Positions 27,765 to 55,859 of a stretch of 64,000 nucleotides of DNA are shown piece by piece. Location: positions 222,796 through 286,795 of IMG/VR virus record IMGVR_UViG_3300049044_000033; one strand, 5' to 3'. The first letter of the stretch is position 1. The number at the start of each line of letters is the position of its first letter. A program made the position numbers and the translations under genes. Under the pieces are notes generated by a model. The model had not been told where the DNA came from. It did not search any database and was given only the letters and a program-made list of their open reading frames with translations. The stretch is from a virus. Taxonomy: Duplodnaviria; Heunggongvirae; Uroviricota; Caudoviricetes.

Positions 27765-28208
27765 CTATATGGTTAAGCGAAACAAGACCATATGCTTCGG
27801 GGTATCGGACAATGGGGAATCAATCATCTGAACAATCAAAGGGGTGACCTTAATAGCTCGTTCGCTACAAACTTCATTGCTTCTCTTTAGGTCATTGCTG
27901 ACCATACCCAAATCAATCCAGCGACAATAACCCATATCTGTAAAGCTACTAGGTGATACCTTTATAGCATAGAGGTAAGCGTGAAGATACGCAGCAACTT
28001 TAGATTGCCCATGCTTCTCGTGAAGTTCCCAGAGGTTCCTACCCAATCGAGTGCAGGTCTTCTTCAATCGACCTTTCTCGTAAGGCGTGATACCTAGAGT
28101 GTTTACAGATACCTCTTCACATTCCATCTTGTCCTTGATATCAAGAGCTAGGTTACGGATAAGACGGAGGTCTTTGATAATAGTCTTATAGAGCTCTGCA
28201 ATATCCAT
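27765..28208 (-). CDS. hypothetical protein (147 aa)
   Basis: ORF. Its stop overlaps the upstream gene's start. Confidence 0.45.
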   Translation of the reverse strand: MDIAELYKTIIKDLRLIRNLALDIKDKMECEEVSVNTLGITPYEKGRLKKTCTRLGRNLWELHEKHGQSKVAAYLHAYLYAIKVSPSSFTDMGYCRWIDLGMVSNDLKRSNEVCSERAIKVTPLIVQMIDSPLSDTPKHMVLFRLTI

Positions 28209-29152: not shown

Positions 29153-30352
29153 TTAGCGGGCATTAAGCTGTGCCTGTCGCTGTGCTGCCGAGGCCAGCGA
29201 TTCCTTGAGCTTCTGCTCTGCTGCGATCAAACGCTGCTCAGCATCGGCGCGCTTGGCCTTACCTTGCTCTGCGAGATCGATGGACTCATTGATCGTAGCG
29301 ATCAAGAGTTCATTAGCCTGTTCCGCTGCCTCAACATCGAAGATGCCGCGCTCGATTTCCTTGCGGGCAACTGCGTTGCTAGTATTGAGCTGCTTCGCGG
29401 ACTGAACGATCAGCTCGTTGGTGAAATCAGTAGCCGTCTTAGTGGCCTTGCCGGCTTCTTCTGCGCGCCATGCTGCAATGGAAACAGCCATAGTGCGCTT
29501 CCAGAGGGGCAAAGTATTGAGCAGCTGACTCTGGATCTTCTCTGCGAGACCCTTATCATTTGCCTGGACGATGCGGATGCTAGGTAGCGCCTGGATGGTC
29601 AGGTTACGCGTCAGCAAGAGATCAGCCCGCTTGCGTTCCAGAGAATCACGAGCTTCGGTCAAGTCCCGCAGATCCTGCACATCTGCCATATCACCGCTGG
29701 CATCGGACTTAGCCTTGGCGGCCGGGATCATATTCGTGTTAACGTCCTCGAGCAGGTAGTCCATAGCGGCAATCTGCTCATCGAGCGAATCCAGCAGACC
29801 CAACGTGGCTTCGTATTGCTTGTCGAGTGCCACAATATCCTTGAGCATCTGGACGCGATGCCCTTCAAGAACGTTGTAGGTCTTGAGAATCTGACCTTCG
29901 ACCGTCTGGTAGCGATCCAGGAACTTCTGCAGGACGCTGGCCTTACCTAGCAGCTTTTGGAAGAAGCCAGGCTTCTGACCAGTAGCAAGAGCCGCAAAAT
30001 CCAGCCCCTTCATTTCGCGGACCATCTGGTTCATCGCGTCGCCGACTGGACCAGTATCCTTGGTACGAACGCCCTGGAGCATTTGTTCGGAAACTTGCGT
30101 AGTTGCCTTCTGTGCTTCAACGCCGAAGGTGATAATCGACTGACTATCCTTGAGGTTGATCTTGCTTGCGAGCTCCTTGGCACGTTCGCGCGACACCTTG
30201 TTGGGAATACGTCCGGCCTGACCATTGAGGCTGACAATATCCTGAGATCCGATCTCAGGCACGGTCAGAGCATTTTCAGCCGTCGGTGTGGGGAGAAGTT
30301 CACCGGTCAACGACGGGGTCGCCGTACCGATCTTTGTAGGATCACTTGCCAT
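29153..30352 (-). CDS. TelA-like (toxic anion resistance family) protein
   Basis: 399 aa alpha-helical protein. Family-level resemblance only. Confidence 0.4.
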   Translation of the reverse strand: MASDPTKIGTATPSLTGELLPTPTAENALTVPEIGSQDIVSLNGQAGRIPNKVSRERAKELASKINLKDSQSIITFGVEAQKATTQVSEQMLQGVRTKDTGPVGDAMNQMVREMKGLDFAALATGQKPGFFQKLLGKASVLQKFLDRYQTVEGQILKTYNVLEGHRVQMLKDIVALDKQYEATLGLLDSLDEQIAAMDYLLEDVNTNMIPAAKAKSDASGDMADVQDLRDLTEARDSLERKRADLLLTRNLTIQALPSIRIVQANDKGLAEKIQSQLLNTLPLWKRTMAVSIAAWRAEEAGKATKTATDFTNELIVQSAKQLNTSNAVARKEIERGIFDVEAAEQANELLIATINESIDLAEQGKAKRADAEQRLIAAEQKLKESLASAAQRQAQLNAR

Positions 30353-30354
30353 TT

Positions 30355-31071
30355 TTAGATTCCCTCGTTGTTGAGTCGGTTCTTCATAACAGTCATGTTG
30401 ACATCAAAGTCCATGACATCATTTGCCAAAAGCTTGTCGAGCAGCTTTTGGAAATTATCATCGATGGTGTCGAGCATTTCGTCGAACTGTGCCATCTGCT
30501 TCTGTGCTTCGAGATTGCGAGCACCGGTCCGGCTCAGCTGAGCATAGCCCTTGACTAGTGTGATCGTTTCATCCAAGTAACTGTTGAGCCAGCTTTGAGC
30601 CAGCAAAACGTCCTTGGGATCAACGCGGAAATCCTCGATGATCTTACGACCAATAGCATCAATATGCTTGATGCGTCGGATTGTGTTGGGGCTCTTGATC
30701 TGGGTAGCTTCCATGAGGATCCGGTCCAGCTTGTCACTGCCCATCTTGATCGCTTCCACGACCAGCTTCGTATCCACGCCCGAAGTACCTGCTGCGATAT
30801 CGTCAATATGCCGGTAGAGATCCTTAATGTCTTGTGCGGTTGCCGGGCGCCGACCAGGGAAGAAGTACCAAATCCCTAATCCAGTTGCTGCGCTCAACGG
30901 GCCAGCTAGTGCGAGATCACCGATAAAGGAAAGTGGGAAAGCAGCCATGCCGCTTACAAAGACACACGTTGCGCCTCCAAATGCTGCTAACTTACTCACT
31001 AGATCTTTGTTCATCGGTTCCTCGCTTAACACTGGCTCCTTTATAGCAAGGTTTACCAATGTGTCTACCAC
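30355..31071 (-). CDS. hypothetical membrane-associated protein (238 aa)
   Basis: ORF with hydrophobic N-terminal segments, coupled to its neighbours. Confidence 0.45.
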   Translation of the reverse strand: MVDTLVNLAIKEPVLSEEPMNKDLVSKLAAFGGATCVFVSGMAAFPLSFIGDLALAGPLSAATGLGIWYFFPGRRPATAQDIKDLYRHIDDIAAGTSGVDTKLVVEAIKMGSDKLDRILMEATQIKSPNTIRRIKHIDAIGRKIIEDFRVDPKDVLLAQSWLNSYLDETITLVKGYAQLSRTGARNLEAQKQMAQFDEMLDTIDDNFQKLLDKLLANDVMDFDVNMTVMKNRLNNEGI

Positions 31072-31129
31072 TGATTAGAAAAGAAAGGGCGACATTGCTG
31101 CCGCCCCTTCTCCTATAGGTTAGTCCAAC

Positions 31130-32869
31130 TTAGTCTTCTGGGTTAATACCAGCAAGCTTCTGGATCTCAGCCTTCTCGCTAGGAGCAAGAGGAGCCTCGA
31201 TTACCGTCTTAGCTACGCGACGTGCTGCTGGCTTTGCAACCTGCGGAGCACCCACGACTGCCAGACCTTCATCATCCAGAGGAGCAGCAACCGATTCGAC
31301 CAGACCATTAAGGCCACGGCTCAGGTCAACGCCAAGCTCGCGAGCCAGTTCGTCAACAACCGGAACCTGCAGTCGGTAGCCCAGCATCGAGTTGGTCAGG
31401 TCAGTAGCGAGGTTTCCTGTAGGAGCCGACTGACCGCCGAAACCTTCGCCATTGGAATGACCGCCCAGGCCACCCATCTGAACTACGCGGATGCTGTCGA
31501 CCTTCTCCATCGGCTTGGTCATCTTTTCCATGATGGCCGGCAGAGCTTCAATCAGAGCCTTGCGCATGTTGTATGCCATCTGGGCAGAGCTTGTCACGTT
31601 AGCAGCTTCGTTGAGGGCGCGCTGACCTTCCGATTCAACTTCGTAACGCTTTGCGTCAGCGTCGATGAGGCGTTCCTTGGCCTGTGCGCTTGCGTCAGCA
31701 GCAGCCAGTTCAGCTTCAGCACGGATACGAATACCCGCAGCTTCTTCCTGAGCCTTAGTCTCAGCCGCAATAACAGCAACCTTCTGGCTACGTTCTGCCT
31801 GTGCCTGTGCCTCAACAGTCTTCACCGCTTCAGCAGCCTTAACAGCTTCCGCGCGAGCAGCATCAGCAGCCGCACGGGCCTTGGATTCCTGCTCCGACTT
31901 CTCAGCAACCGCAATACGTGACTGCTGGCTAGCAATCTCGAGAGCCTGCGCTGCTTCAGTTTCGGCTACCTGGATAGCGCGCTTCTGTTCGACGCGAGCC
32001 TGCTCAGTAGCACGAGCAGCTTCAATTTCTGCCAGATCAGATTCACGCTTACGGTCGGCGCGGGTCTGGGCCAGTTCAGCTTCCTGCTGGGCACGACGGG
32101 TTTCAACTTCGCGCTCCTGCTCCAGGGTAGCGAATTCGTCCTGCTGCTTAATATCCAGCGAGCGCTTGTTGGCTTCGAAGTTCTTCTGCTCAATCGCAAC
32201 GCGGTTGTCAGCTTCGATGTCGTTACGCTCCTTCTTGCGAGTCTCAGTAACCTGAGTCAGCTTCGCAAGACCTTCAGCGTCGAAGGCGTTGTTGGGGTTG
32301 AAGAATTCAACCGAAGTCTGGTCCAGACCAGTTAGCGACACCGATTCAAGTTCCAGACCGTTCTTGCGCAGGTCTTCAGCAACAGTTGCCTGAACCTTCT
32401 GAACAAACTCAGCGCGCTTTTCGTGAAGGTCCTGCATATCCATACCAGCTGCCGCAGCACGGAGAGCGTCGATGAACTTGCCTTCAATTAGCGAAGCCAG
32501 CTGATCAGGAGCCAAGGTGCGGCGACCAAGCGTCTGTGCCGCAGCCGCAATGCTCTGCTCATCTGGAGCAACACGAACATAGAACTCTGCCTTCACGTCA
32601 ACGCGCAGACGGTCCTTAGTGATCAGCGAATCACGACCCTTACGTTCGACACCGAGACGCAGCGTCTGCATGTTGATGGGGATGGTTTCGTGGAACACTG
32701 GCAGAATAACAGCGCCACCGTCCTTAACGACCTTCTGTCCACCCATACCAGTACGGACAAAAGACTGTTCCTTGCTTGCGCGATGGAACATTTTGGTCAT
32801 GATCAAACCGATGACCATGAAACCTACTAGGAAGACGCCTAGCAGAATACCTGCAAATTGAAGAGTCAC
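31130..32869 (-). CDS. SPFH/band-7 flotillin-like protein (YqiK-like)
   Basis: 579 aa. N-terminal TM, SPFH core (VRTGMGGQKVV...), then a long Ala/Glu-rich repetitive coiled coil (AEAELAAADASAQAKE). Confidence 0.75.
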   Translation of the reverse strand: MTLQFAGILLGVFLVGFMVIGLIMTKMFHRASKEQSFVRTGMGGQKVVKDGGAVILPVFHETIPINMQTLRLGVERKGRDSLITKDRLRVDVKAEFYVRVAPDEQSIAAAAQTLGRRTLAPDQLASLIEGKFIDALRAAAAGMDMQDLHEKRAEFVQKVQATVAEDLRKNGLELESVSLTGLDQTSVEFFNPNNAFDAEGLAKLTQVTETRKKERNDIEADNRVAIEQKNFEANKRSLDIKQQDEFATLEQEREVETRRAQQEAELAQTRADRKRESDLAEIEAARATEQARVEQKRAIQVAETEAAQALEIASQQSRIAVAEKSEQESKARAAADAARAEAVKAAEAVKTVEAQAQAERSQKVAVIAAETKAQEEAAGIRIRAEAELAAADASAQAKERLIDADAKRYEVESEGQRALNEAANVTSSAQMAYNMRKALIEALPAIMEKMTKPMEKVDSIRVVQMGGLGGHSNGEGFGGQSAPTGNLATDLTNSMLGYRLQVPVVDELARELGVDLSRGLNGLVESVAAPLDDEGLAVVGAPQVAKPAARRVAKTVIEAPLAPSEKAEIQKLAGINPED

Positions 32870-32885
32870 TTAATTCTCCTATGAA

Positions 32886-33530
32886 TTAGATCTTACGCAC
32901 CATGTGGGCGTGATTAATTGACCTATGTGGACCGGTTAGCACCGCAGTTTCACCCACATCAATATTTTCTTCACCATCGGCAAAGACATAAACGTAATGA
33001 TCAGTACCATACTGATCGGTTACCCGGATTGAACCACTCTGGGTATTTGAGACTGGTCCGACAACAATAGGACCGGATAGATTAGATAAACTTTCCAGAG
33101 ATACCGCGGATGTAATATCTCTAGGCATTAATTGTGCAGCCACAATCGACCCCCAACGAACAAAGGGGAGCGTCAATGAGAACACAATAGGACAACTGAG
33201 CAACATAGGAGCATAGGCACCTGTCAGGCCTTCATAGACCCACTGTGCGCTATATCCAAGGATTGTGAACACTGTGCTGAAGATCACAAGGAAGATCATC
33301 ACTGGAACACTTCCAGGATTAAACCAACCTAAGATGTGAGAGTCTACTTCTAAGTAGTCGGGAATGCCGTTCCCGTTCAGATCCGCAGAGAAATCTATAT
33401 CATGATGGAATGAGCTAAAGCCCAAAATCAATCCGATGATTTCAAGAACCAAAATAGCACCGAGGAGACACGCACTCACAAGGAATGGTGTGTTGGCTTG
33501 TGCTAGTAAGAAAGTAGAAATGTTGTCCAT
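32886..33530 (-). CDS. NfeD-like membrane protein (YqiJ-like partner of flotillin)
   Basis: 214 aa. Multiple TM helices plus a C-terminal beta-rich segment, immediately upstream of the SPFH gene in the same orientation, as in yqiJK operons. Confidence 0.5.
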   Translation of the reverse strand: MDNISTFLLAQANTPFLVSACLLGAILVLEIIGLILGFSSFHHDIDFSADLNGNGIPDYLEVDSHILGWFNPGSVPVMIFLVIFSTVFTILGYSAQWVYEGLTGAYAPMLLSCPIVFSLTLPFVRWGSIVAAQLMPRDITSAVSLESLSNLSGPIVVGPVSNTQSGSIRVTDQYGTDHYVYVFADGEENIDVGETAVLTGPHRSINHAHMVRKI

Positions 33531-33565: not shown

Positions 33566-33865
33566 TTATTCTTTTGGTGGGAGAGAGTCAGCTAATCGTG
33601 CGAGGACGTTACCGTGACAAGGAGAGGGTGAACACCAGCAACCTAACTTTTTGCCTTTGAGTTCATAGAGGGCATCCATAAGAGCTTTTTGCTCTACTAC
33701 CCACTCAGCATATTGCTGGATACATTCTTCTCGGGTGCCGTCACGCCCGACCACGAAGGGATTGCCCCACTTTGTCTTCCGGTCGATACGAACGTCGTAG
33801 TGATCTTCTTTGAGATTAACTACCGAGGTTCCGGGCGGGGGCCATGAAAAGAGATCGTCTGCCAT
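33566..33865 (-). CDS. DUF4326-like small protein
   Basis: 99 aa. WGNPF...LGCWCSPSPCHG motif. Confidence 0.5.
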   Translation of the reverse strand: MADDLFSWPPPGTSVVNLKEDHYDVRIDRKTKWGNPFVVGRDGTREECIQQYAEWVVEQKALMDALYELKGKKLGCWCSPSPCHGNVLARLADSLPPKE

Positions 33866-34052: not shown

Positions 34053-34124
<72 letters not shown>

Positions 34125-34170
34125 CATGTTGTGTGCTCTCTTTGTAGCACCTACATACCTATTTAGCAAT

Positions 34171-34530
34171 TTAAACTTTGAACTCTTTCTTCAAAGCTTC
34201 TTCCATTTGAGAAAAGGAGAGTGGCTTTTCTAAGACTGTGAAGCCATGGAAGGCTTCCGGAAGCTTATGGGGATCACCGGTGCAAACAATCACAGGGGTG
34301 AGGCTATGCCGGAGGTGCTCTGCTACTTCTTCAGTAGTGCCATCTGTGAGCGTCACATCAAGGACCACCCCGGCGAATCTGCTATTTTCCACAAGCTTTA
34401 TGGCTTCAGGAACTGTTGAGGCAAATCCCGCTACTGTGAGACCGACCTCATCGCATACTTCTTCCCAGTAGATTTGAAGATATGCTTCATCTTCAATAAT
34501 CAGGACTTGTTTGCGATTTATTCCAAACAT
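34171..34530 (-). CDS. stand-alone response-regulator receiver (CheY-like REC) domain protein
   Basis: VLIIEDE acidic pocket, VVLDVTLTDG phospho-acceptor Asp region, PVIVCTG, LEKP Lys. 119 aa with no output domain. Confidence 0.7.
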   Translation of the reverse strand: MFGINRKQVLIIEDEAYLQIYWEEVCDEVGLTVAGFASTVPEAIKLVENSRFAGVVLDVTLTDGTTEEVAEHLRHSLTPVIVCTGDPHKLPEAFHGFTVLEKPLSFSQMEEALKKEFKV

Positions 34531-43388: not shown

Positions 43389-45011
43389 TTAACGATCGTA
43401 GGACGTCTTGGTGATCTTCTTGGATTTACCAAATTCCTGACGAGCAGCCTTCTTGAGCTCATCCAAGCTGCCATATTCTAGCTCAGCTTGCTTGATGATT
43501 GCTTCGTGGATTGTTTCGTTATCCTGAAAGTGCTTTTGACATACTGCCCTAATGGCCTGGTAGACACTCGCGTGTGGATTTGCCTTGATGGTTTCACGGA
43601 CAATACGTAGAGCTTGGGCCAACTGTCCTTGGGTCAAATTATGACCAGCAGCTTCCTCTAGTTCTGCCTCTTCCTCTTCAAGTGCTTCAACGAGCCCCTT
43701 AGACAGGGCCTCAAGACGGGCACGAGTTTCATGGACGCTAGGTGTACCCTGGTTCTGATAGGACCCTTGCTGAACGCCTGCGAGCTTCTGAACCTCTTGG
43801 ATCTGCTGAGAGAAGAATACATCATCAGTCGTATCTTCTTCGACCTTTTCTTCCTCTTCGACTTCCTCGTGGAACTGACGGTATTCACTAGTTGGCATAA
43901 CATCAATACCTAGGACGTAAGCGCCTTCCTTAATGTCGACTTCTACTTCTCCAGCAGCAACCTTGGCCGCGATAGAACGAGCAGCGCCATAATCAGCGAA
44001 GCCTTCCTGGATTAGCTGAACCTTAGTACCAGCAGTAGCCCAGCTTGGATTCTCAGCCGTGCCAATGTTTTCCATCATCTGGGTGTGGACCACCACAACA
44101 AAATTATTGGCCTCCATTACAGGCTCCTCCTCTGTTTCTTCTAGTGATTCCTCGATATCAGCCAATGGCATGTTATCGTTGTCGTAATCATCACGGATCT
44201 CTTCATTAAGACTCTCGTGGATTTCATCTTCAATATCAGTTGCGAGCGCATCTTGTTCCATCACATAGTTGAGAACTAACTGATGAAACTCTGCTTCGCC
44301 GAGTATGCCATTTTCCTGCATATATGGCGTATTGACATAATGTCCATAAGCACGGGAGAGCACGGTCTCAATTGGAAAGCCCTCATTATACCCTGACCAA
44401 TCCAAGCATTCTACCAAGTCACCCTTGTAGATTACATCACCGATAGACTGAAGACCTTCTGAAAGACTCTCGCTGATCTTCTTAGCAATCATAATTGGAC
44501 TCTTGATCCCAGTAGTGATCAGACCCTTCTTCTTGAATTCGCTGTAGGTCTTTTCGTCAGTCAACATCGCGCTGCTATTCGAGGCAGAGAATGCAATGAC
44601 CTGAAAGTGTTCCATATCGAACTCAGTGCAGCCACCATACATGACATTTGGCTTAAAGGTAACTTCCTTGAATGCCTTGATAGCTTCTCCTTTGCTCGAA
44701 TAACCAAGCATGACTTTGTCTTCGTCAAACTTGCTTCCATCAACAGTCAGCTGATGCATCACATAAACCCTAGCATCTTTCTTGGGGTTCTTCCTCAGAT
44801 AACAATCGAGGTGTTCTCCGTCAGGGCTATGAGTGCCTTTGATATAGCCATAGTGGGCTGGGATCTTTATAGCCCATTCCTCACCGGTCTTTTTGTTTTT
44901 GCCGCGGCGATAACCGTCGGCGGGCACCTCAACTGAGATATCTAGGCCTTCAAAATGTTGACGGCTGTGAAGTTTTGCCTCATTGAGGCTCTTGAAAAAT
45001 TCCATGCTCAC
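43389..45011 (-). CDS. protein with N-terminal inorganic-pyrophosphatase-like domain and long acidic C-terminal extension
   Basis: IPAHYGYIKGTHSPDGEHLDCYL and VYVMHQLTVDGSKFDEDKVMLGY parallel the family I PPase NYGYI..T...DGDPLDVLV and V..M.D..G.D.K motifs. Total 540 aa. Confidence 0.4.
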   Translation of the reverse strand: MSMEFFKSLNEAKLHSRQHFEGLDISVEVPADGYRRGKNKKTGEEWAIKIPAHYGYIKGTHSPDGEHLDCYLRKNPKKDARVYVMHQLTVDGSKFDEDKVMLGYSSKGEAIKAFKEVTFKPNVMYGGCTEFDMEHFQVIAFSASNSSAMLTDEKTYSEFKKKGLITTGIKSPIMIAKKISESLSEGLQSIGDVIYKGDLVECLDWSGYNEGFPIETVLSRAYGHYVNTPYMQENGILGEAEFHQLVLNYVMEQDALATDIEDEIHESLNEEIRDDYDNDNMPLADIEESLEETEEEPVMEANNFVVVVHTQMMENIGTAENPSWATAGTKVQLIQEGFADYGAARSIAAKVAAGEVEVDIKEGAYVLGIDVMPTSEYRQFHEEVEEEEKVEEDTTDDVFFSQQIQEVQKLAGVQQGSYQNQGTPSVHETRARLEALSKGLVEALEEEEAELEEAAGHNLTQGQLAQALRIVRETIKANPHASVYQAIRAVCQKHFQDNETIHEAIIKQAELEYGSLDELKKAARQEFGKSKKITKTSYDR

Positions 45012-45809: not shown

Positions 45810-48002
45810 TTACTTGTTCAGCTTAGGATTAATCGAAACTTTCTTCGAAGGTGTAGGGTTAATTGAAACCTTCTTCGAAGCAGTTGGATTAATTGAGACC
45901 TTCTCAGAACCCTTTGGATCAATACGGACTTTTTCAGAACCAGTTGGATTGATCGAGACCTTATGCGAAGGGGTCGGGTTGATTCTAGTTGCAGCACCTG
46001 CTGAAGCACCGGCCATAGCAGCGGCAGCGCCCATGCCAAGAGCTGCCTTCTTCAGCTTGTCCTTCAGACCTTCTTCGAGATCTTCAGACTCTTCGACCTT
46101 CTCTTCCTTTGGCTCTTCGGCCTTTGGCTCTTCCTTCTTTTCCCAAGGCTTACCACCTTCTGGAGCCGAAGAGCCCTTGACTTCTTCAGCCTTTGGTTCA
46201 GCAGCTTTTTCGCCACCTTCGGTCTTAGCAGAACCTGCTGGGTTAGACTTTAGCTTCTGGTAATCAGTTGAGAATGGCTCACCCTTATACTGACCCATAG
46301 TATCTACTGGCCAGTGAGCAGCATTGATGTTCTCTTCCAAGGACTCGTTAGTTTCATCATCAACCATAGCTGAACCGTTAGTCGCGAAGTCACCAACGTT
46401 CTTTGGGTTCTGACCGTCCTTCTTCATGTTGTTGATCATCTTCTGAGCAACACTACGTTCTTGACCATCGAGACCCTGCATTGCAGTAGAGATGCCCTTG
46501 TTTGCTGCGCTCTTGTCCTTAGACATGTTAGCAGCAACCTTGCCCATCACGCCAGCAGCGACTTTCTTGTCCTGGCTAGATAGAGCGTTGAACTCACGAA
46601 GCTTGCTTACGCTGTAGGATGCTGGGCTCATACCGTATTCGGCCATGAAGGACTCAACAACCCAAGTGTGGCAGTTTTCAGCGCCTTCCATCAGACCGCC
46701 GGCACTTGCCATCTTATTAGCAAATTCGGTGACAGTCTTGCTTGCCATGCCCTTACCGAACTTCTTGAGGTTACCCTCAATCAAGCCAGCGAGAGTGCGA
46801 GCAACTAGAGCGCCTTCAGAAACAGCGTCATCACCCTTCTGCTTCTCGCGACGTGCCGACTTGCGAGCCTTGAACTTTTCTTCCTTGTCGGAATCTTCAT
46901 CATCAGAATGACGGAAGGTCTTACCTTCTTCTAGTTCATCATCGCCCTTCTGCTTTTCCTTACGGGCAGATTTGCGAGCTGCGAAACGATCAGCCTTGTC
47001 TTCGTCTTCGTCGTCACCCTTGCGGAAAGTCTTGCCTTCCTCGAGTTCGTCTTCGCCCTTACCCTTTTCCTTGCGAGCAGACTTACGAGCCTTGAAGCGA
47101 TCTTCCTTATCGGAATCCTCATCATCGTTCTTCTTGAAGGTCTTACCTTCAACTAGGTCAAGGTCAGCAGACTGGGTGAAGGTTGGCTCAGCGAGCTGTG
47201 CCATTGCGGCCATACCGTGCTTCTTCTTACCAATCCAACCAGCAAGCTTAACTGGATCCTGAGCAGCCTTCTTGGCAACGCTCGAAGCAAAGCTCTTGAA
47301 GTGATCTTCTGGCATACCGAGAGCAGCTTCATTGAGAACCCAATCAATCAGTGCGTCAAGACCTTCGGTCTCAATCAGCTTCTGACCAGCAGCTTCAAGG
47401 ATGATGGACTCGTTGAGAGCCTTGCCGCCTTCAACGCTTTCCTTCTTAGCACGACCCAGTGGCTCTTCAACTGGACCAGCAGCCGCATCAGCAGCACCAA
47501 AATCGTCCATTGCGCCATCGATGTCAGCTTCGCCGCCCATGTCATCACCGGCTGGTTCAGCAAATGGTTCAGCAGCAGGTTCTGCGCCAACATCAGCAGC
47601 CATGTCGTTAGCTGGCAGCTTGCCCTCTAGACGCATAATTGCGTTGCCCATTTCGTCCTTAGCGGAACGAACGCTATTCATAGCAGCAGTGATAACACCC
47701 TGAGCTGATTCCTCAAACTGGTGGGCACCGTCCTGGCCGAAAGTTGCCTTCATCTTGTCCACTAGTGGGAAAAGATCCTGTGCGTTCATCTTAGCGAGAT
47801 CTTCAGCCATGTTCTGCAACTTGTGCATCATGTCCTGTGCTGCTAGGATGAGTTCTGCCTGGTCTAGGTCATTTTCAAGAAGGGTTGCCATGCCGGTTGG
47901 CTGAGCAGCTTCTTCCAGCTTACGAGCAGCGACGAGACGAGCCTGCACGGTTGCAACCTCCTCCTTGATCGCCTGAAGCCTGTCAATCTTGTTCTTGTTC
48001 AT
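45810..48002 (-). CDS. large repeat-containing protein (coiled coil plus tandem repeats)
   Basis: 730 aa. Three tandem 36-aa repeats (EGKTF[KR]K.DDED.DKE[DE][KR]F[KA]ARKSAR[KR]EK.KG.DEL). A C-terminal run of 9-aa repeats (S.KVSINPT) is repeated six times. Confidence 0.55.
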   Translation of the reverse strand: MNKNKIDRLQAIKEEVATVQARLVAARKLEEAAQPTGMATLLENDLDQAELILAAQDMMHKLQNMAEDLAKMNAQDLFPLVDKMKATFGQDGAHQFEESAQGVITAAMNSVRSAKDEMGNAIMRLEGKLPANDMAADVGAEPAAEPFAEPAGDDMGGEADIDGAMDDFGAADAAAGPVEEPLGRAKKESVEGGKALNESIILEAAGQKLIETEGLDALIDWVLNEAALGMPEDHFKSFASSVAKKAAQDPVKLAGWIGKKKHGMAAMAQLAEPTFTQSADLDLVEGKTFKKNDDEDSDKEDRFKARKSARKEKGKGEDELEEGKTFRKGDDEDEDKADRFAARKSARKEKQKGDDELEEGKTFRHSDDEDSDKEEKFKARKSARREKQKGDDAVSEGALVARTLAGLIEGNLKKFGKGMASKTVTEFANKMASAGGLMEGAENCHTWVVESFMAEYGMSPASYSVSKLREFNALSSQDKKVAAGVMGKVAANMSKDKSAANKGISTAMQGLDGQERSVAQKMINNMKKDGQNPKNVGDFATNGSAMVDDETNESLEENINAAHWPVDTMGQYKGEPFSTDYQKLKSNPAGSAKTEGGEKAAEPKAEEVKGSSAPEGGKPWEKKEEPKAEEPKEEKVEESEDLEEGLKDKLKKAALGMGAAAAMAGASAGAATRINPTPSHKVSINPTGSEKVRIDPKGSEKVSINPTASKKVSINPTPSKKVSINPKLNK

Positions 48003-49377: not shown

Positions 49378-50718
49378 TTACTTCTTACGGCGTTCGCCGA
49401 GGTAGTCACGACCCATCATCTGCACCTGATTAGTCAGATCCTGCAGCTTCTGGATCAAGCTTTTGTATTCGGAAAGGCGAATGTCTGCCAGCATGGTCTG
49501 AATGTTATTCAAGCCATCTTCAATCTGCGACATTGCTTCACTCTGAGTTGGAGCCATTGGCATCTCACCTGGCATACCAACTGGTTCAATTGGGTCAGTA
49601 CCAATAGCGCCTGGAATACCGGCATCGTCTGGAAGATCTGAACCTAGTTCAGCATCAAGATCGCCACCCATATCTACTGGTTCTTCGCCCGCCGGCGCCA
49701 TCTCAGGAGCATCAAGGTCACCAAGGTCGTCAGCTACATCACCAACCGGACCAGCAGCTAGAATACCCTCTGGATCAATCTCAGGGGCATCTGCAACTTC
49801 AATACCTGCGATGTCATCGTCCATGAGAGGAAGACCTGCGAGTTCGCGCAGGCGGAAGAGTGGATTTACTTTGTTCATACCAATTACTCCTTCGTCTAGG
49901 CGGCTCACTTCAGTCTCAGCTACCATTTCAAGCTGGCCGTTCATAATAACGCCGATGGTTCCGTTTGGTCCGTGAGGGATCTTGACCTGGCCAGAAACTT
50001 CACCGACCATTACATCCTCACCAATTGCGAATTCGATCTCCTCGTCAAAACGACGACCCTTGTGCTTTACGCCACGGCCATATTTGTCAGACTTACGAGG
50101 GTCCTTACCATCAGCATGGGCGCCTGAACGACCAGCTACTGGCATTGCTGCTAGAGGGTTACGTGGCTTCATATCAGCCATCTTTGCCTTAGCGTCATTG
50201 ACACGCTTATTAGAATTCTTGCTCATCTTTTCCTCAATTTCCACGGAATCACGCACCGTTGGCTTACGGAGGATCTCCGATAGAGCGCGACCAGTGCGAT
50301 ACGCTGCCTCGCGATCCATACACTCAATGTTGTAGGAAAGCGGGCTAGTAGCCTGATACTCTACTTGGTTTTCATCCAACCAGTCAAGAACTCGGTCGCG
50401 GGTCTGTTCGGAAACTTCAACAGCATAGCTGAAGCCTTCATCCACTCGGGTCATCACACCAAAGGTCTCGTCTAACGCTTTACCTTCGCGGATGCTTTCC
50501 CATTGTGCGTTCAGAAGATCGTCGCTCATTGCTGCCTCACTCATAATCTTGATACCATATTTACCTAGTCGTGAATTGACTCGAGCAGTTCGACCAGACT
50601 TTATGTCATCGACAAGACCCATTAGTTCATTGCCGTCAATCTGAGCCTTAACTTCGGTTGCCTTCTTCTCGTCAACACCCTTGCTCACAAGATAATCAGC
50701 TAAGTCGAACTTATCCAT
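49378..50718 (-). CDS. hypothetical protein (446 aa, acidic C-terminal region)
   Basis: ORF. It is the last minus-strand gene before the divergent intergenic region 50719-51025. Confidence 0.5.
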   Translation of the reverse strand: MDKFDLADYLVSKGVDEKKATEVKAQIDGNELMGLVDDIKSGRTARVNSRLGKYGIKIMSEAAMSDDLLNAQWESIREGKALDETFGVMTRVDEGFSYAVEVSEQTRDRVLDWLDENQVEYQATSPLSYNIECMDREAAYRTGRALSEILRKPTVRDSVEIEEKMSKNSNKRVNDAKAKMADMKPRNPLAAMPVAGRSGAHADGKDPRKSDKYGRGVKHKGRRFDEEIEFAIGEDVMVGEVSGQVKIPHGPNGTIGVIMNGQLEMVAETEVSRLDEGVIGMNKVNPLFRLRELAGLPLMDDDIAGIEVADAPEIDPEGILAAGPVGDVADDLGDLDAPEMAPAGEEPVDMGGDLDAELGSDLPDDAGIPGAIGTDPIEPVGMPGEMPMAPTQSEAMSQIEDGLNNIQTMLADIRLSEYKSLIQKLQDLTNQVQMMGRDYLGERRKK

Positions 50719-51025
50719 TCTTCTTGCCCTTTCTTACGTGGATGCGGGTTTTGATCTTTGGACCACGGCTTTCCTGAATGATCAGCTCAAACTGGTGAGC
50801 CCAAAGACTTTTAGCCTGCTCAAATGTAGCGGCAGACAATTTTAAAGGCTCATCGCCAAATAGCTCAGAAAGAGTCATCTAATACTCACTCAGTTCATGT
50901 TGGATCTAGTGGTATTTAGCTTATTGCCTACTCTTCGGAGCAAACTTGCTAGTTAAAGCAACACACCCGAAATCAACACTTTACGGTAAATAATCGTAAC
51001 AGCTCGCGAACTAAGGAGACTACAA

Positions 51026-51271
51026 ATGGGCGATCTATTTAAAAGTGTAGTCGAAATGATCGCGAAGGGCGAAGCAGGTTCACTGACGGCTATCCTTCTA
51101 GCTATCATCGGGGTTCTGGGATGGTATTGCTACCGTCTTATGAAGCAGGTGGAAAAGAAGGACGAGAAGATCTACAAGATCATCGACGAATATTCCAAGA
51201 ACAACATTACCATCACTGATGCGTTGAATGGTCTAAAGACTGTGTTGATCGAGATTAAGGCAAAGCTCTAA
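51026..51271 (+). CDS. small membrane protein
   Basis: 81 aa, one TM helix (SLTAILLAIIGVLGWYCY). AAGGAG RBS 8 nt upstream. Confidence 0.45.
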   Translation: MGDLFKSVVEMIAKGEAGSLTAILLAIIGVLGWYCYRLMKQVEKKDEKIYKIIDEYSKNNITITDALNGLKTVLIEIKAKL

Positions 51272-52938
51272 TGTGGTTCAATAAGGATAAAAAGGCTAAG
51301 AAGCAGCAAAGGGAAGCAGTTCTAAAAGCTGCGATGGAATCTAGCGAAGCTTTGGAAAAGGCCGCTAAGGGGACCATGAATCTAGCCGAAGATGTTACTA
51401 AGACTCTTCAGAGCCGAATTGATGATTATGCCCAGCAGATTGACCAAACAGCCCGCCTCCTAAGTGATGCCCTCATGCTTGTTGATGATCACGGAATCAT
51501 TGAAAGCTTCAACCAAGCAGCTGAAAGCATGTTTGGTCATGCTCGTCGTTCAATTAGAGGCAAGAATCTTTCTACCCTTTTTGAATTCCAACAAGACACA
51601 AAGATCACCCCAGACTTCATGGAAGAGCTGATGAACAAGGTGAGCGAGAATGATCTCTCTGCTACTGTTCATTATGAAGACTTTATGGGAGTCCGCAAGG
51701 ATGACACGAAGTTCTATGTTGATGTAGGCGTAAGCAAAATCATCCGTAGCAATTCAAAAGTCAAGTATATCATCCTGGTTCGTGACGTAAGCCAAAAGGT
51801 CATGAATAGCAAGATGCTAGAAGAATTAGCTCAGAGGAACCAAGAACTCCTAGCAACTATCGATGCTTCAAATACTGGGTTCATCATTATTAGTCCTGAT
51901 GGTAGTGACTTCAAGATCAACTTCGTGAATGAAGGCTTTAGTCGCCTAACTGGTTATTCGAGAACTCAAATACGTAACATGAGTCTAATGGACCTTCTTG
52001 GCATAGAGCAGACATTCTGGTCAGTGCGCCGCAGTCTATTGGAGCACGTAGAAGCACGTCATGAAGTTCAGCTAGAAATCGGCAACTGTCAGACTATTTG
52101 GTTCGACGTTCAGATTACACCGGTCTTTCAGAATGGTGTGTTGAACCAGTGGATTCTAGTATTCTATGATACTACCGCACTCAAGAAGGCCTATCACGAC
52201 CTACGCAAAAGCGAGTCGCACTTTAAGGCATTCAGTGACGCTAGCTCTGAAAGTATGTTGATTCACAACTTTGGCCAGGTGATTGATTGGAATGATCGAC
52301 TCAATAAGCTGACCGGCTACTCTGACGAAGAGATCGAGCAACTCGGTCCACTAGATTTGGTTCATCCTTTAGAGCGTGAAAAGATTCGTGACGAAGTTCA
52401 TCTTCTAGGTAGTAACAGCTACGAAACCCTCTTCATGACCAAGCAGGGAGACGTTCGAGAAGTAGCAGTGAATAGTCGTTCAATTGAATGGGAAAATGCT
52501 GACGCTCGTATTGCTATCGTGCGTGATGTAACTGAATACAAGGATATCGAGACTCAGCTAAAAACAGCTAGAGAGCGTTACCGCACTGTCATTGATAACA
52601 CAATCGACATGGTGATCTGCTTTAATGCCAATTTCGAGATCACTTTTAGCAACCAGACCTTCCGAGACTACTATGATGTAGAACTCGAAGATATTAATGG
52701 ATTCTCCCTCCTAGAGATTATCCCAGAGCCTGATCACCGCAAGTTCATGGAGTATATGTTGAGCATTACTCCTGATATGCAAGTTCGTCGTGGAATTCAT
52801 CGCGTTCAGCGTCACGATGAGGTTAGAATGCAGGATTGGATCGATCGTGGTATCTTTGATGAAGATGGCACCTTGATCGAAATCCAAAGCATTGCTCGAG
52901 ATGTAACGAGTCTACTTCCTCCCCCAAATCAGACTTGA
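51271..52938 (+). CDS. multi-PAS domain protein without recognisable output domain
   Basis: 555 aa. About four PAS-like modules (for example LMLVDDHGIIESFNQAAESMFGH, FIIISPDGSDFKINFVNEGFSRLTGYS, MLIHNFGQVIDWNDRLNKLTGYS, MVICFNANFEITFSNQTFRDYY). ATG overlaps the upstream stop. Confidence 0.65.
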   Translation: MWFNKDKKAKKQQREAVLKAAMESSEALEKAAKGTMNLAEDVTKTLQSRIDDYAQQIDQTARLLSDALMLVDDHGIIESFNQAAESMFGHARRSIRGKNLSTLFEFQQDTKITPDFMEELMNKVSENDLSATVHYEDFMGVRKDDTKFYVDVGVSKIIRSNSKVKYIILVRDVSQKVMNSKMLEELAQRNQELLATIDASNTGFIIISPDGSDFKINFVNEGFSRLTGYSRTQIRNMSLMDLLGIEQTFWSVRRSLLEHVEARHEVQLEIGNCQTIWFDVQITPVFQNGVLNQWILVFYDTTALKKAYHDLRKSESHFKAFSDASSESMLIHNFGQVIDWNDRLNKLTGYSDEEIEQLGPLDLVHPLEREKIRDEVHLLGSNSYETLFMTKQGDVREVAVNSRSIEWENADARIAIVRDVTEYKDIETQLKTARERYRTVIDNTIDMVICFNANFEITFSNQTFRDYYDVELEDINGFSLLEIIPEPDHRKFMEYMLSITPDMQVRRGIHRVQRHDEVRMQDWIDRGIFDEDGTLIEIQSIARDVTSLLPPPNQT

Positions 52939-52989
52939 CGTTCTGGAAATTGGTGCTATTCCTATCTTATAGACAGATAGGAGGCAACT

Positions 52990-53187
52990 TTGGACGACGA
53001 CAAGATTATCGAAGATACGTTCGACGATGCATTCGAGATCATTCGGGACGGCAAGTTCCGAGTGCGGAAGAATAATGCGCTTCTAGCTGATATAGCTCGA
53101 GAACGCCGACTGAACCAGCTAAAGCAAGAAAGCCGATACCGGCATGATGTAAATCGTTTTGCCGACCAGGTCAGGAAGGTCGCTTAA
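52990..53187 (+). CDS. hypothetical small protein
   Basis: 65 aa ORF followed by a terminator. Confidence 0.35.
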   Translation: MDDDKIIEDTFDDAFEIIRDGKFRVRKNNALLADIARERRLNQLKQESRYRHDVNRFADQVRKVA

Positions 53188-53196
53188 AGACAAGAA

Positions 53197-53235
53197 ACCC
53201 CGGTAGTTGCCTACCGGGGTTCTTTGTTTCGTTTC
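53197..53235 (+). terminator. rho-independent terminator
   Basis: AACCCCGGTAG/CTACCGGGGTT stem followed by CTTTGTTTCGTTTC. Confidence 0.55.
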
Positions 53236-53245
53236 TAAGTAGAAC

Positions 53246-53578
53246 TTAGAAAGTGAAAGCTGCTACCACAACAGTGAAGCCGCAAGCGTTCGAAACTTCA
53301 GTGCTGAACGCAGTCAGGTCACCGAAAACTTCGTTGTGCTCAACAGCAAAACGCAGGGTGCCAGTGGTGGTGTTACCAGCTGGGGTGCCCATGATCACTG
53401 GCTGTGCGCGGATCGAAAGTGCTTCGATCAGCTTGTCCAGCTTAACGTTGTGACCTGCAGTTGCGGTCAGGATGTCACCAGTTACGGTGGCAGTGAACAT
53501 CTTCATTGCGCCCGAAAGGAACTGGTCTGGGGTAGCAACGAAGCCGTTTACCTTATCAGTCATTGTAAATCTCCTCAA
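53246..53578 (-). CDS. hypothetical protein (110 aa)
   Basis: ORF, Thr/Ala/Gly-rich. Confidence 0.4.
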   Translation of the reverse strand: MRRFTMTDKVNGFVATPDQFLSGAMKMFTATVTGDILTATAGHNVKLDKLIEALSIRAQPVIMGTPAGNTTTGTLRFAVEHNEVFGDLTAFSTEVSNACGFTVVVAAFTF

Positions 53579-53616
53579 AGAGAGTTTCTATTTCTCTTAT
53601 TTATACAAGAGCGGAT

Positions 53617-53802
53617 TTAACGACGGATAATTACGGTCTCATTCTTAGCTTTACGCTTCTTTTTGCGCTCAGCTGCGTCGTAGATTCCTTTGTGCCCATT
53701 TGGATCAAATCCAGCACCGATGCCACCGATACTAGTGGCCACGCTACCTGCTGCTGAGGCGCCCGCAGACGCTGTCTCGTTTATAATTTCTGCCCAACGC
53801 AT
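53617..53802 (-). CDS. hypothetical small protein
   Basis: 61 aa ORF. Confidence 0.3.
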   Translation of the reverse strand: MRWAEIINETASAGASAAGSVATSIGGIGAGFDPNGHKGIYDAAERKKKRKAKNETVIIRR

Positions 53803-53803
53803 A

Positions 53804-54709
53804 TCACACCCTCAAGCCCATCTTTCTAAACTTATCGACAGGGATTTCTGCCTTCAGACTATTTAAGCGCTCAAGATAGATTTTCTTAATTGTTGCTACT
53901 TCTTGGACTGAGAAGCAGCGAGTGACTGAATACCAGATCGCTTCAAGAGAATCTAGGTCAGAGTTACGGAAATAGTTTCCACGAAAGATGAACTCTTCAA
54001 CTTCCTTGGGGTTATCAATGACGGTCGCCGAAGCTGTCAAGGCCGAGGGGTAGATAGCCAAGAAGTCATCCTTAGCTAGTTCAGCAAAGTCCTTCACTCG
54101 ACCCTTTCCATCTTTCCTCATAGGGCGGTGACGATAACGCCAAACTATACCACGATCATGGAAGAAGGTCGGACCCACTCGGGCAATGACTTCTTCATTC
54201 TCTTCCAAAACCCAGTCACTATTGAAGGCAACTAGAGCCTTGATTAATTCTGTTCGATAAAGACCCTTAAAGTTAGACTCGCCAGATCCCAAATGCCACC
54301 AGTGGGCAGGCTTAATAGGCATACTAGGAGAATAATAGGAAAACGCTTGCCAGGCATAGTTTCCAAACATGAAGTCTACTTGAACGTAACCATGCTTCTC
54401 ATTGCCTCTAATGGGCACCGCAGTGAAGATCTGATTATTACCAGGGCGAGGCTTAACATGATCTTCTCCCAAGAGCGTAGTCAATGCGTTAGCTACCTCT
54501 TCTTGGTTATAGAGTTCAATATTCATGTTGAGGTCCAGGTCACCAGAATCGATGTTCTTACCCGCACTGCCTAGGAGGTGATCAATATAGTCACCGCCTT
54601 GAATCTTAGACCCAGACCAGTTAGCTGTTAGCCAATTAAGAGTCGGCTTGATCTCTTCCTTTAGGATGCGACGGGTAATCCCCTCAAATGCCTTACCGCC
54701 CATTTTCAA
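53804..54709 (-). CDS. Pol-beta-superfamily nucleotidyltransferase
   Basis: LGSAGKNIDSGDLDLNM fits the [GS]-x(7-13)-D-h-D-h NTase signature. 301 aa. Start overlaps the stop of the ligase gene. Confidence 0.5.
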   Translation of the reverse strand: MKMGGKAFEGITRRILKEEIKPTLNWLTANWSGSKIQGGDYIDHLLGSAGKNIDSGDLDLNMNIELYNQEEVANALTTLLGEDHVKPRPGNNQIFTAVPIRGNEKHGYVQVDFMFGNYAWQAFSYYSPSMPIKPAHWWHLGSGESNFKGLYRTELIKALVAFNSDWVLEENEEVIARVGPTFFHDRGIVWRYRHRPMRKDGKGRVKDFAELAKDDFLAIYPSALTASATVIDNPKEVEEFIFRGNYFRNSDLDSLEAIWYSVTRCFSVQEVATIKKIYLERLNSLKAEIPVDKFRKMGLRV

Positions 54710-55859
54710 TTCTCTTTCTTGTATCGTAAAACATACCTAGGGTTCGTAGATGTAGAGACCCGTCATACCTAATAGACCACTTCTTTCTAAGGAGATGAAT
54801 TTCCTTAGTCAGTTTTGTGTGATGCTTCAAATACCGCTCTAATAGCATATCTAAGCGGGCTAGTCGCTCTGCTTTTGGCCAATCCTTTGTTCGACTCAGA
54901 AAGCTTGATCGAGCAGGACGGCGACCTCCAACAATCCAGTATTTTACCCTGTGGGTAAACAGATTCAGGTCCGGAAAGACCTCACGATTGACGATCTTAA
55001 AAGTCACGTCGTCAGCTTGAACCACAAAGCCTTCCTGGAGGCCAGTAGTGCTCTTGACCGAACCTATCCCCTGTCGAGTAAAGGATTCAAAAACACTTCG
55101 TATGAAATCATATAAGATATCATCATATGACTCTTTTAGGAGAGCCTTCTCAGTTTTGATCTCTTCTTTTAGTTCGGCCCACTTTCGGTCACCTGTCATA
55201 GGATGCTTTTTAGCCAAACTAGCTTCCATAACATCGAGAGCTGTTAAGCCAGTTATGTTACTTTTCCGAAAGAGGAACTGCTTTAAATTAGATTCCAACA
55301 CAGATATCGGATGGAAGAGGTTAGCGTTATATTCACTGAACTTGCTAAGGATTGAGAACTTCCAGTTCCACTCAAGGCAGTAGGTTTGCGGGTTTCTTCC
55401 ATCAAGGGTAAACAATGCCCCTGGAGGGGACATAACGCTGAATGACCGTAATATGATCTCCACATCAGTAGAGATTTCAACATTAGAGCCAATGATAACA
55501 ATCCGCGCAGATTCACCCGCCCCTAGTGTGTAGGGGATGGTGTTGGGCATAGTTCCATGGATAATTTCAGCCTGGAACTTGTGACCTTTGTCTATCAGGT
55601 CCTGGCTAATCAGTTCAGCTATTAAAGAGCCTGCACAATGGTGAGCCATCCGATAGGTAGAAGCCCAACACTCAAGAGGCCATTCATCAATTGAATAACA
55701 TGCAGGAGCGCCTTTGCGCTTGGAGAAGAAACGACCGTCATCGTCGAGACCGAACTCGAAAGAGGATCCGTCAAGCTTTTCACTGATAGTCCAGCTACCA
55801 TGAACTAGCCTCAAAAGCGTTCGAGGAGGAAGATCACCTATGTGCGGTATGCTGGTCAT
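54693..55859 (-). CDS. ATP-dependent polynucleotide ligase (DNA/RNA ligase nucleotidyltransferase family)
   Basis: Motif I EKLDGSS (KxDG), motif Ia-like FSKRKG, motif IV-like EGFVVQ. 388 aa. Confidence 0.55.
   Translation of the reverse strand: MTSIPHIGDLPPRTLLRLVHGSWTISEKLDGSSFEFGLDDDGRFFSKRKGAPACYSIDEWPLECWASTYRMAHHCAGSLIAELISQDLIDKGHKFQAEIIHGTMPNTIPYTLGAGESARIVIIGSNVEISTDVEIILRSFSVMSPPGALFTLDGRNPQTYCLEWNWKFSILSKFSEYNANLFHPISVLESNLKQFLFRKSNITGLTALDVMEASLAKKHPMTGDRKWAELKEEIKTEKALLKESYDDILYDFIRSVFESFTRQGIGSVKSTTGLQEGFVVQADDVTFKIVNREVFPDLNLFTHRVKYWIVGGRRPARSSFLSRTKDWPKAERLARLDMLLERYLKHHTKLTKEIHLLRKKWSIRYDGSLHLRTLGMFYDTRKRIENGR

Follow-up and report, generated by a model that had tools for sequence, protein, structure and literature searches.

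Tandem PAS domains joined by helical linkers occur in bacterial proteins such as DosP, FixL, the Brucella LOV-PAS histidine kinase (LOV-PAS-HK), and PpsR, which use heme or flavin and carry EAL/GGDEF, kinase, or helix-turn-helix (HTH) outputs. Other regulators, including short LOV proteins (PpSB1-LOV), Neurospora VVD, Drosophila PER, and mammalian IPAS, consist only of PAS domains and flanking helices and act by partner binding; these proteins have one or two PAS domains, and the LOV members use a flavin-cysteine photocycle. Vibriophage VP882 encodes a PAS transcription factor, VqmA, which is reported to have a DNA-binding domain and DPO as its ligand (PMC8284805). Here, we analyze a gene at positions 51271–52938 (plus strand) of a 64,000-nucleotide stretch of DNA (the window) from a Caudoviricetes virus (IMG/VR record IMGVR_UViG_3300049044_000033, positions 222,796 to 286,795), which encodes a 555-residue protein composed only of four tandem PAS domains. 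Like DosP, FixL, LOV-PAS-HK, and PpsR, its best sequence and fold matches, this protein has tandem PAS domains connected by helical linkers, but it carries none of the signatures of their outputs or cofactors. It resembles the PAS-only regulators in consisting of PAS domains and flanking helices and in its proposed output through partner binding, but in contrast to them it has four divergent PAS domains, no photoactive cysteine, and a dedicated partner gene for a small membrane protein. It shares with VqmA the property of being a phage PAS protein but has no DNA-binding domain.

We found that the family to which this protein belongs is conserved across a clade of jumbo phages with genomes of 400–500 kb and is tied to a tiny membrane protein. 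How phages sense their surroundings is of current interest, and the family differs from VqmA in having no output domain at all. The gene pair is a solid find of conserved proteins; a new mechanism is not demonstrated by it. Protein searches covered a collection of 5.8 billion proteins and a phage collection of 50,697 records.

Domain architecture and predicted structure of the PAS protein

The PAS gene (51271..52938, +) starts with ATG and encodes a soluble protein of 64.3 kDa with a pI of 5.0 and without any hydrophobic or transmembrane segment. Pfam models PAS_9 (E 2e-41, 140.7 bits; cut-off 27), PAS (87.4 bits; cut-off 22.6), and PAS_8 (78.3 bits; cut-off 21.8) each matched four stretches of the sequence, PAS_4 (76.4 bits; cut-off 23.1) and PAS_3 (57.0 bits; cut-off 25.6) matched as well, and the NCBIfam 'sensory box' model TIGR00229 aligned with four stretches at 163.7 bits. 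No non-PAS Pfam family scored above its cut-off. In particular, Pfam gave no match to a HisKA/DHp domain with a phospho-accepting histidine or to a GGDEF or EAL domain, HATPase_c was absent both from this protein and from the precomputed Pfam lists of all 59 orthologs, and neither NCBIfam nor Pfam contained an HTH family that matched. NCBIfam kinase equivalog models reached 30–72 bits against cut-offs of 334–2000 and did so through the PAS region only, and models of kinases, phosphodiesterases, and regulators (DosP, FixL, PnpS, WalK, PdhS, YtvA, and others) fell 10- to 100-fold under their cut-offs. Where the DosP, FixL, PnpS, WalK, PdhS, YtvA, and Tlr1612 models aligned below cut-off, they did so solely through their own PAS parts.

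We modeled the protein with AlphaFold2, using an alignment of 56 orthologs, and assigned secondary structure with DSSP. In this model (mean predicted local distance difference test score, pLDDT, of 78), each of the four domains forms a five-stranded antiparallel sheet flanked by helices. A long N-terminal helix (residues 5–63; 51283..51459, +) precedes PAS1 (residues 64–173; 51460..51789, +), which is closest to the PAS-A domains of DosP and FixL; PAS2 (residues 200–301; 51868..52173, +) is LOV-like by sequence; PAS3 (residues 325–421; 52243..52533, +) is of the PAS_3 type; and PAS4 (residues 444–545; 52600..52905, +) is the most conserved domain. Linker helices span residues 174–199, 302–324, and 426–443, and an 11-residue tail follows PAS4, the protein ending 10 residues past this domain, straight at the stop codon. 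Foldseek searches of the PDB with this model returned the PAS arrays of DosP, PpsR, the Brucella LOV-PAS-HK, and FixL with E values of 1e-11 to 1e-17, and the best PDB sequence matches to PAS2 were short LOV proteins of the PpSB1 type. A profile search of the PDB with PAS4 returned a single generic PAS domain, 3eeh. The four domains are mutually divergent, with z-scores of up to 5 over short alignments only, and a recent internal duplication was therefore rejected.

Conservation within the family is concentrated near the C-terminus, where 34% of the alignment columns in PAS4 and 27% of those in the PAS3–PAS4 linker are at least 95% conserved, the highest values for any part of the protein; PAS2 is the least conserved domain. 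The N-terminal helix carries a motif, AAxxTxxLAxDVTxxLxxRIDDYxxQIxxT, that is common to family members with three and with four PAS domains, and T35 and A39 of this helix are invariant in a wide family alignment. These patterns make PAS4 a candidate output or interaction domain, the N-terminal helix a candidate for dimerization or docking, and both this helix and PAS4 with its preceding linker candidate binding surfaces. The first-pass annotation of the window had described a plus-strand reading frame encoding four PAS modules and no kinase, GGDEF/EAL, HTH, or other effector domain. The Pfam, NCBIfam, AlphaFold2, and Foldseek results bear out this description, and the domain scan revealed no effector that had been missed. 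Its proposal that the protein works through protein-protein interaction is the sole reading that an effector-less architecture leaves open.

An invariant partner gene for a small membrane protein

Directly upstream of the PAS gene, open reading frame (ORF) analysis and alignments identify a gene that the first-pass annotation overlooked. It lies at 51026..51271 (+), is preceded by a ribosome-binding site (AAGGAG, 51013..51018, +), and encodes a single-pass membrane-type protein of 81 residues (9.1 kDa), with a short N-terminus, one hydrophobic helix at approximately residues 17–39 (Kyte-Doolittle 19-residue maximum of 1.89 at residues 17–35), and a conserved helical C-terminus with the motif KIIDDYxKxNxTxTEALNxLKxVLxEIKxKL. 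The C-terminal part is of mixed charge (nine Lys/Arg, seven Asp/Glu), and its lysine-rich side comes after the hydrophobic helix; by the positive-inside rule, the C-terminus of the 81-residue protein would face the cytoplasm. The TAA stop codon of this gene shares one base with the ATG of the PAS gene (TAATG, 51269–51273), and this stop/start overlap suggests that the two genes are translationally coupled.

Multiple observations support a specific linkage of the two genes. First, in every PAS locus with upstream sequence (L001, L002, L004–L010, L013, L016–L026, and L028–L029), the gene immediately preceding the PAS gene, on its strand, is the 81-codon gene; no other partner of the PAS gene is invariant. 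Second, the pair is also intact in loci that were reached through distant homologs of the small protein (L009/L010, L013, L016, and L017), and in L017 the two genes have stayed together despite different flanking genes. Third, the only records of the phage collection with either gene, those of Sinorhizobium phage Phosso and Agrobacterium phage Atu_ph07, contain both. Finally, the linkage is one-way. An exhaustive HMMER search returned 67 cluster representatives (50% identity) of the small protein, and some small genes stand without a PAS gene: in L011/L012 the small gene occurs in an unrelated context, and in L015 the upstream synteny and the small gene are kept but no PAS ORF is present in the 440 nt downstream. 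The PAS gene may have been lost in L015. The small proteins from loci without a PAS gene retain the same conserved C-terminal motif, and among PAS loci with upstream sequence a PAS gene without the small gene was never seen. Because the small gene occurs without the PAS gene and the reverse was not observed, the 81-residue protein has its own function, with the PAS protein behaving like an accessory to it; this pattern is consistent with an accessory regulator whose partner is more ancient.

The L015 contig, which is 3.2 kb long and comes from an AT-rich relative (32% GC), has only short broken reading frames at the PAS position (2790–3232). Two further relationships between the partners were considered and rejected. 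Common ancestry of the C-terminal helix of the small protein and the N-terminal helix of the PAS protein, both of which contain 'IDDY', received an hhalign probability of 0.2, and long matches to the small protein that resembled fusions of the two partners (P0153, P0184) were unrelated repeat proteins.

Phage origin, conservation, and selection

The PAS protein is of phage origin, as the first-pass annotation had held. The window contains genes for a virion structural protein, a class I ribonucleotide reductase, and a DnaB-type helicase, as well as for topoisomerase II subunits, a CCA-adding enzyme, and one tRNA; an identical PAS protein is present on a JGI contig of 462,455 bp; and the PAS locus is syntenic with those of Atu_ph07 (490 kb) and Phosso (469 kb). 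By sequence, the product of 51271–52938 is the ortholog of Atu_ph07 gp49. Both gp49 and the Phosso protein are full-length homologs with the 81-codon gene upstream, in the same orientation and with the same neighbors, and the window protein shares the position of the family between virion-protein genes and the DnaB helicase gene. Unlike the window protein, the Phosso protein has three PAS domains and lacks PAS2. The same three-domain form, of 410–434 residues and without PAS2, was found through the partner gene in L013, L016, and L017, which, like Phosso, are more distant members of the family.

In the phage collection, the PAS protein matched only the proteins of Phosso (XYS97609.1; 31% identity over 98% of the query) and Atu_ph07 (AUZ94861.1; 27% over 100%), in each case over the whole length. 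A megablast search of positions 50000–54000 against the same phage records gave no match, so relatives are detected at the protein level only. The 5.8-billion-protein collection contained 59 PAS clusters at 44–100% identity (44–84% for the ~58 other than its own), all PAS-only and, barring a few fragments, 550–567 residues long, on contigs of up to ~480 kb. Search scores then plunged from 494 to 132 bits at the point where bacterial PAS-GGDEF and PAS-kinase proteins start. The PAS-only clusters and the abrupt fall in score mark these proteins as an orthologous family in its own right, specific to phages, rather than as something recently captured from a host. Ratios of nonsynonymous to synonymous substitution (dN/dS) were ~0.03–0.15 in every domain of the PAS protein, with saturated synonymous sites, and 0.03–0.10 in the 81-codon gene. 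Both genes are under strong purifying selection.

The Atu_ph07 ortholog (MF403008.1 6992–8602; L007; UniProt A0A2L0UZB1) is annotated as a histidine kinase, and the genome paper lists gp49 as a gene of 1,611 nt in the functional class 'Other' (PMC6102473). The kinase label does not hold, as gp49 aligns over its whole length with the PAS-only family and ends with PAS4; likewise, the recorded Pfam matches of the 536-residue gp49-type genes on the near-identical contigs L009/L010 are to PAS families only. The label, together with the fact that PAS arrays usually precede an output domain, could suggest that a bacterial sensor kinase was captured, lost its kinase domain, and decayed into the functionless remnant seen in the phage. 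We regard this possibility as next to negligible: length is constant at 550–567 residues over 59 clusters, the low dN/dS values were obtained with synonymous sites saturated, the genome position is conserved, and the protein ends cleanly 10 residues past PAS4. Purifying selection essentially refutes a remnant.

A different proposal for an effector-less PAS array is that it acts as a decoy, forming mixed dimers with host PAS histidine kinases or cyclic di-GMP (c-di-GMP) enzymes and blocking them in a dominant-negative fashion, with the small gene being unrelated. The protein keeps the full sensor and dimerization scaffold of PAS kinases and c-di-GMP phosphodiesterases without an output domain, bacterial PAS-GGDEF and PAS-kinase proteins are the closest relatives outside phages, and FixL, PdhS, and DosP models give weak, partial alignments that are confined to the PAS part. 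Moreover, the hosts of the isolated relatives are Rhizobiaceae, which rely heavily on PAS kinases, and the eukaryotic PAS-only proteins VVD, PER, and IPAS offer a dominant-negative analogy. However, identity to any bacterial protein is 22–26%, a low value for a protein that would have to mimic and pair with a specific host protein, and the family spans phages of 32–58% GC, which presumably differ in their hosts, disfavoring a tailored target. A late-type promoter, as described below, would be odd for host takeover, and the invariant coupling to the small gene would be left unexplained. We consider a decoy role unlikely.

How unusual is such a protein? The first-pass annotation called a phage multi-PAS sensor unusual, and PAS folds are indeed rare among viruses: BFVD, a collection of predicted viral structures, yielded 21 matches at E <= 0.001, and the sole full-length match was Atu_ph07 gp49 (Foldseek, E 1e-38). 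Within one jumbo-phage clade, however, the protein is a conserved gene product, and GenBank has contained the family, under a wrong name, since 2018. In bacteria, standalone multi-PAS proteins are common, and several PAS-only matches appeared in the 5.8-billion-protein search. The PADLOC library of defense systems gave nothing meaningful. A literature search on PAS proteins in jumbo and huge phages found no paper on the PAS-only family, and the papers on Atu_ph07, on the Sinorhizobium jumbo phage AP-J-162, and on jumbo-phage comparisons do not discuss it. What is new here is the pairing of the small-protein and PAS genes, the late-type promoter, the absence of cofactor signatures, and the correction of the annotation.

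Expression signals of the gene pair

The pair is separated from a divergent minus-strand operon by an intergenic region of 147 bp (50879–51025), which holds GGTAAATA at 50985..50992 (+). This putative promoter element of the T4 late type has its TAAATA core at 50987–50992, 34 nt before the ATG of the 81-codon gene. Of 15 related loci, with GC contents of 32 to 58%, 14 have TAAATA 32–54 nt upstream of the small-gene ATG. A second TAAATA (GCTAAATACC; 50913..50918, −) lies 35 nt upstream of the divergent operon, which starts at 50878, and presumably serves it; the block GGTATTTAGC at this minus-strand element is conserved in the locus alignment. Another block in the same region, TAGTTAAAGCAAC at 50950–50962 (+), is kept in the closest relatives, L001 and L006 and in part L002, and is not kept in distant ones.

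Across the window, five of the eight RTAAATA sites fall within the 7% of the sequence that is non-coding (42176, 43387, 45764, and 53604 on the minus strand; 50986 on the plus strand), each 16–102 nt upstream of a gene on the same strand, and one of them precedes the homolog of virion protein gp50. By binomial arithmetic, the chance of such placement in gaps is ~1e-4, and the placement agrees with a class of T4-late-type promoters in this phage clade. The T4 late promoter is TATAAATA, which the TAAATA element resembles, and the element probably acts as a late promoter. Given this resemblance and a gp55-like late sigma factor encoded by Atu_ph07 (PMC6102473), it is reasonable to infer that the pair is expressed late, together with virion genes.

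At the other end of the plus-strand island, a GC-rich hairpin of 11–12 pairs with T-runs on both strands (53196..53231) closes both the island and a convergent minus-strand gene (53246–53578) and is likely, from its sequence, to be a bidirectional intrinsic terminator. Between the PAS gene and this hairpin is an ORF of uncertain status (52990..53187, +; 65 residues) that starts with TTG and has GGAGG five nt upstream; the alignment revealed no conservation of it, the relatives having unrelated small ORFs or none at this position. The small plus-strand island noted in the first-pass annotation is thus real but contains three ORFs (51026–51271, the PAS gene, and 52990–53187) and ends at the hairpin and a T-run at 53196–53221, and the promoter region and terminator that were ascribed to it find support in the conserved TAAATA and in the hairpin with its T-runs.

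Model for the gene pair

We tentatively favor a model, plausible but somewhat short of probable, in which the PAS protein is a split, membrane-tethered adaptor or sensor that modulates the small protein late in infection. The module and the flanking virion-protein operons would be transcribed late, the module from its T4-type TAAATA promoter. The PAS protein would dimerize along its N-terminal and inter-PAS helices, as the PAS arrays of DosP, FixL, and PpsR do, and would dock on the cytoplasmic C-terminal helix of the 81-residue protein or regulate it in some other way. Its output would be a change in protein-protein contacts, most likely via the best-conserved C-terminal domain, PAS4, and would be neither enzymatic nor a matter of DNA binding. 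A ligand, if there is one, would involve neither a LOV-type flavin adduct nor a histidine-ligated heme, and the response-regulator receiver protein of the phage, discussed below, would stand outside the pathway. An architecture of four PAS domains only, a helical spine, fold matches to dimeric arrays, a PAS-only family set off by a steep fall in score, purifying selection on both genes, the gene linkage, the topology of the small protein, the promoter, and the conservation of PAS4 all support this model.

Several observations weigh against it. The predicted template modeling (pTM) score of the AlphaFold2 model is only 0.35, which leaves undefined how the domains are placed relative to one another. 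Ligand-binding residues were looked for and none was identified, which leaves the sensory role as a candidate. The adjacency of the genes could simply reflect use of the small gene's promoter by the PAS gene rather than the proposed contact between the two proteins. With respect to expression, the window contains no excess of RTAAATA (8 sites versus 11 ± 3 expected), and the promoter role draws only on the placement of RTAAATA and its conservation across loci.

Virion proteomics of Atu_ph07 provides a further point against tethering. Matching of neighboring gene sizes to the GenBank order identifies gp48 (9.11 kDa) as the 81-residue partner. Mass spectrometry of Atu_ph07 virion preparations detected gp48 (three unique peptides, 37% coverage), as well as gp40–47, gp50, and gp53–69, and gp49 is absent from the list (PMC6102473 Table S5). 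Because gp48 was found in these preparations and gp49 was not, the 81-residue protein may be a virion component rather than an anchor in the host membrane. Membrane debris, however, could have contributed to the preparation, which was purified with polyethylene glycol (PEG) only and also held ribonucleotide reductase, a RecA-like protein, and single-stranded DNA-binding protein (PMC6102473).

The same data bear on a role in morphogenesis, in which non-sensory PAS folds would serve as a late assembly chaperone or scaffold for the small protein or neighboring virion proteins and be excluded from the particle. The pair sits in a block of virion genes whose products, gp48 included, were detected in the preparations without gp49. 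Our searches confirmed that flanking genes of the window at 45810–48002 and 53246–53578 are homologs of virion-associated gp44 and gp50, respectively, and the late-type promoter motif is common to the pair and virion genes. Lack of conserved cofactor-binding residues is also compatible with a purely structural role. By contrast, it would be unusual for a chaperone to be built from four distinct PAS domains, each conserved separately and with canonical motifs, L015 keeps the small gene without the PAS gene and thus argues that the PAS protein is not needed for the role of the small protein, and the evidence for virion association comes from a preparation that was PEG-purified only. On balance, we judge an assembly role rather improbable; if the PAS protein is an assembly helper only, then our results are chiefly a correction of annotation.

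Control of lysis timing is another potential function for a late-expressed pair of this type. Here, the 81-residue protein would be a holin- or antiholin-like protein and the PAS protein a regulator that couples lysis to energy or redox state, by analogy to the action of T4 RIII on holin T. The small protein has a single transmembrane segment and a charged C-terminus, late expression is inferred for it, and PAS domains commonly report redox or energy state. The lysis system and holin of Atu_ph07 are unidentified (PMC6102473), which leaves room for such an assignment. On the other side, the 81-residue protein matched no holin family in Pfam, PHROGs, or NCBIfam; no endolysin, spanin, or lysozyme-type gene turned up among the scanned genes flanking the pair; the predicted periplasmic part is only ~18 residues long; and detection of the small protein in virion preparations is not what this function predicts. 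We consider a role in lysis timing a long shot.

In a related and similarly improbable elaboration of the membrane-tethered sensor, the four-PAS protein would read the host's metabolic or redox state in the cytoplasm and gate a small membrane protein of a holin-like or ejection type. If true, this two-piece sensor would tune a late decision, such as lysis timing or superinfection exclusion, to host physiology, and sensing by such a mechanism has yet to be described for lytic phages. More generally, should the pair turn out to switch in response to a signal, it would represent a new way for large lytic phages to read the state of the host. Atu_ph07 and its host, Agrobacterium tumefaciens C58, constitute a workable experimental system.

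Cofactor and ligand sites

We searched the PAS domains for residues that could ligate heme or react with flavin. The closest similarities of PAS2 are to short LOV proteins and YtvA. At the position of the photoactive LOV cysteine (GXNCRFLQ), however, 'QDCRFLQG' aligns with 'MSLMDLLG' in PAS2, such that the cysteine is replaced by leucine, the arginine by methionine, and the glutamine by leucine, and the family consensus at this site is MNLRDLLG. Because the cysteine and the flavin-binding arginine and glutamine are missing, LOV chemistry in PAS2 was rejected. Heme ligation of the DosP/FixL type was ruled out for PAS1, in which a threonine aligns with His77 of DosP, and no histidine is invariant in PAS1 or PAS2.

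In the close family, His332, His365, His510, and Cys450 are invariant, but these residues are replaced in Atu_ph07, L016, or L017 and were rejected as a cofactor site; His489 is likewise not conserved in Atu_ph07, L016, or L017. Across the wider family, no histidine or cysteine is invariant. The first-pass annotation had suggested ligand-, redox-, or light-dependent regulation. With no LOV cysteine, no counterpart of the DosP histidine, no conserved heme histidine or flavin motif, and PAS2 itself absent from relatives with three PAS domains, the sequence lends no support to sensing of light or redox state or to sensing through heme or flavin, as there is no conserved histidine- or cysteine-dependent cofactor site. 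Heme ligated by a residue other than histidine or a small-molecule ligand bound non-covalently would be compatible with the PAS sequences.

The receiver gene

The window also encodes a single-domain response-regulator receiver (REC) protein (34171–34530, −; Pfam Response_reg, 33.5 bits; cut-off 30.2). Its translation contains the canonical acidic pocket, with an aspartate in 'VVLDV' and a Lys-Pro pair, and its gene lies beside a tRNA-Thr gene (34053–34125, −) and a DUF4326 gene (33566–33865, −). The first-pass annotation was correct in reporting a REC protein at this location, which is on the minus strand, and proposed that the PAS protein might act together with it. The two proteins would then form one signaling pathway, a notion that is attractive insofar as both have signaling-type domains and are encoded in the same genome, and the acidic pocket is canonical. 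However, the only match to the REC protein among 5.8 billion proteins was itself, and tblastn found no match in the 50,697 phage records, Atu_ph07 and Phosso included; the gene appears to be an orphan specific to this phage. Because the REC protein has no homolog and the PAS family comprises ~59 clusters, the two do not co-occur. In addition, 17 kb separates the two genes, their strands differ, and the PAS protein, which contains neither a kinase nor a phosphotransfer domain, lacks the means to act on a receiver. A common pathway is hardly credible in light of these results and is essentially refuted by the lack of co-occurrence.

Other genes of the window

A membrane-stress-type cluster on the minus strand (29153–33530) consists of genes for TelA (29153–30352), an XpaC-like Halogen_Hydrol protein (30355–31071), a flotillin/SPFH protein (31130–32869), and a YqiJ-like protein (32886–33530). 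It occupies the only stretch of raised GC content (0.52–0.54 versus ~0.47 elsewhere) and may have been acquired from a host. Next to it, an accessory run related to RNA and NAD (23033–29130, −) includes genes for a CCA-adding enzyme/poly(A) polymerase (23033–24187), an HNH endonuclease (24455–25219), a NADAR domain protein (28208–28699), and a staphylococcal-nuclease-like protein (28687–29130).

Closer to the PAS locus, the gene at 43389–45011 (−) encodes a protein of 540 residues, whose N-terminal 120 residues match Pfam InPase (PF18823, 109 bits) and also minor head, virion, and DarB-like proteins and endolysins in PHROGs; this product may be an ejected virion protein with an enzymatic head domain. 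On the far side of the pair, a 388-residue protein (54693–55859, −) has a weak, sub-threshold match to an RNA ligase family (16.8 bits; cut-off 27), and the position of its gene is conserved in all syntenic relatives.

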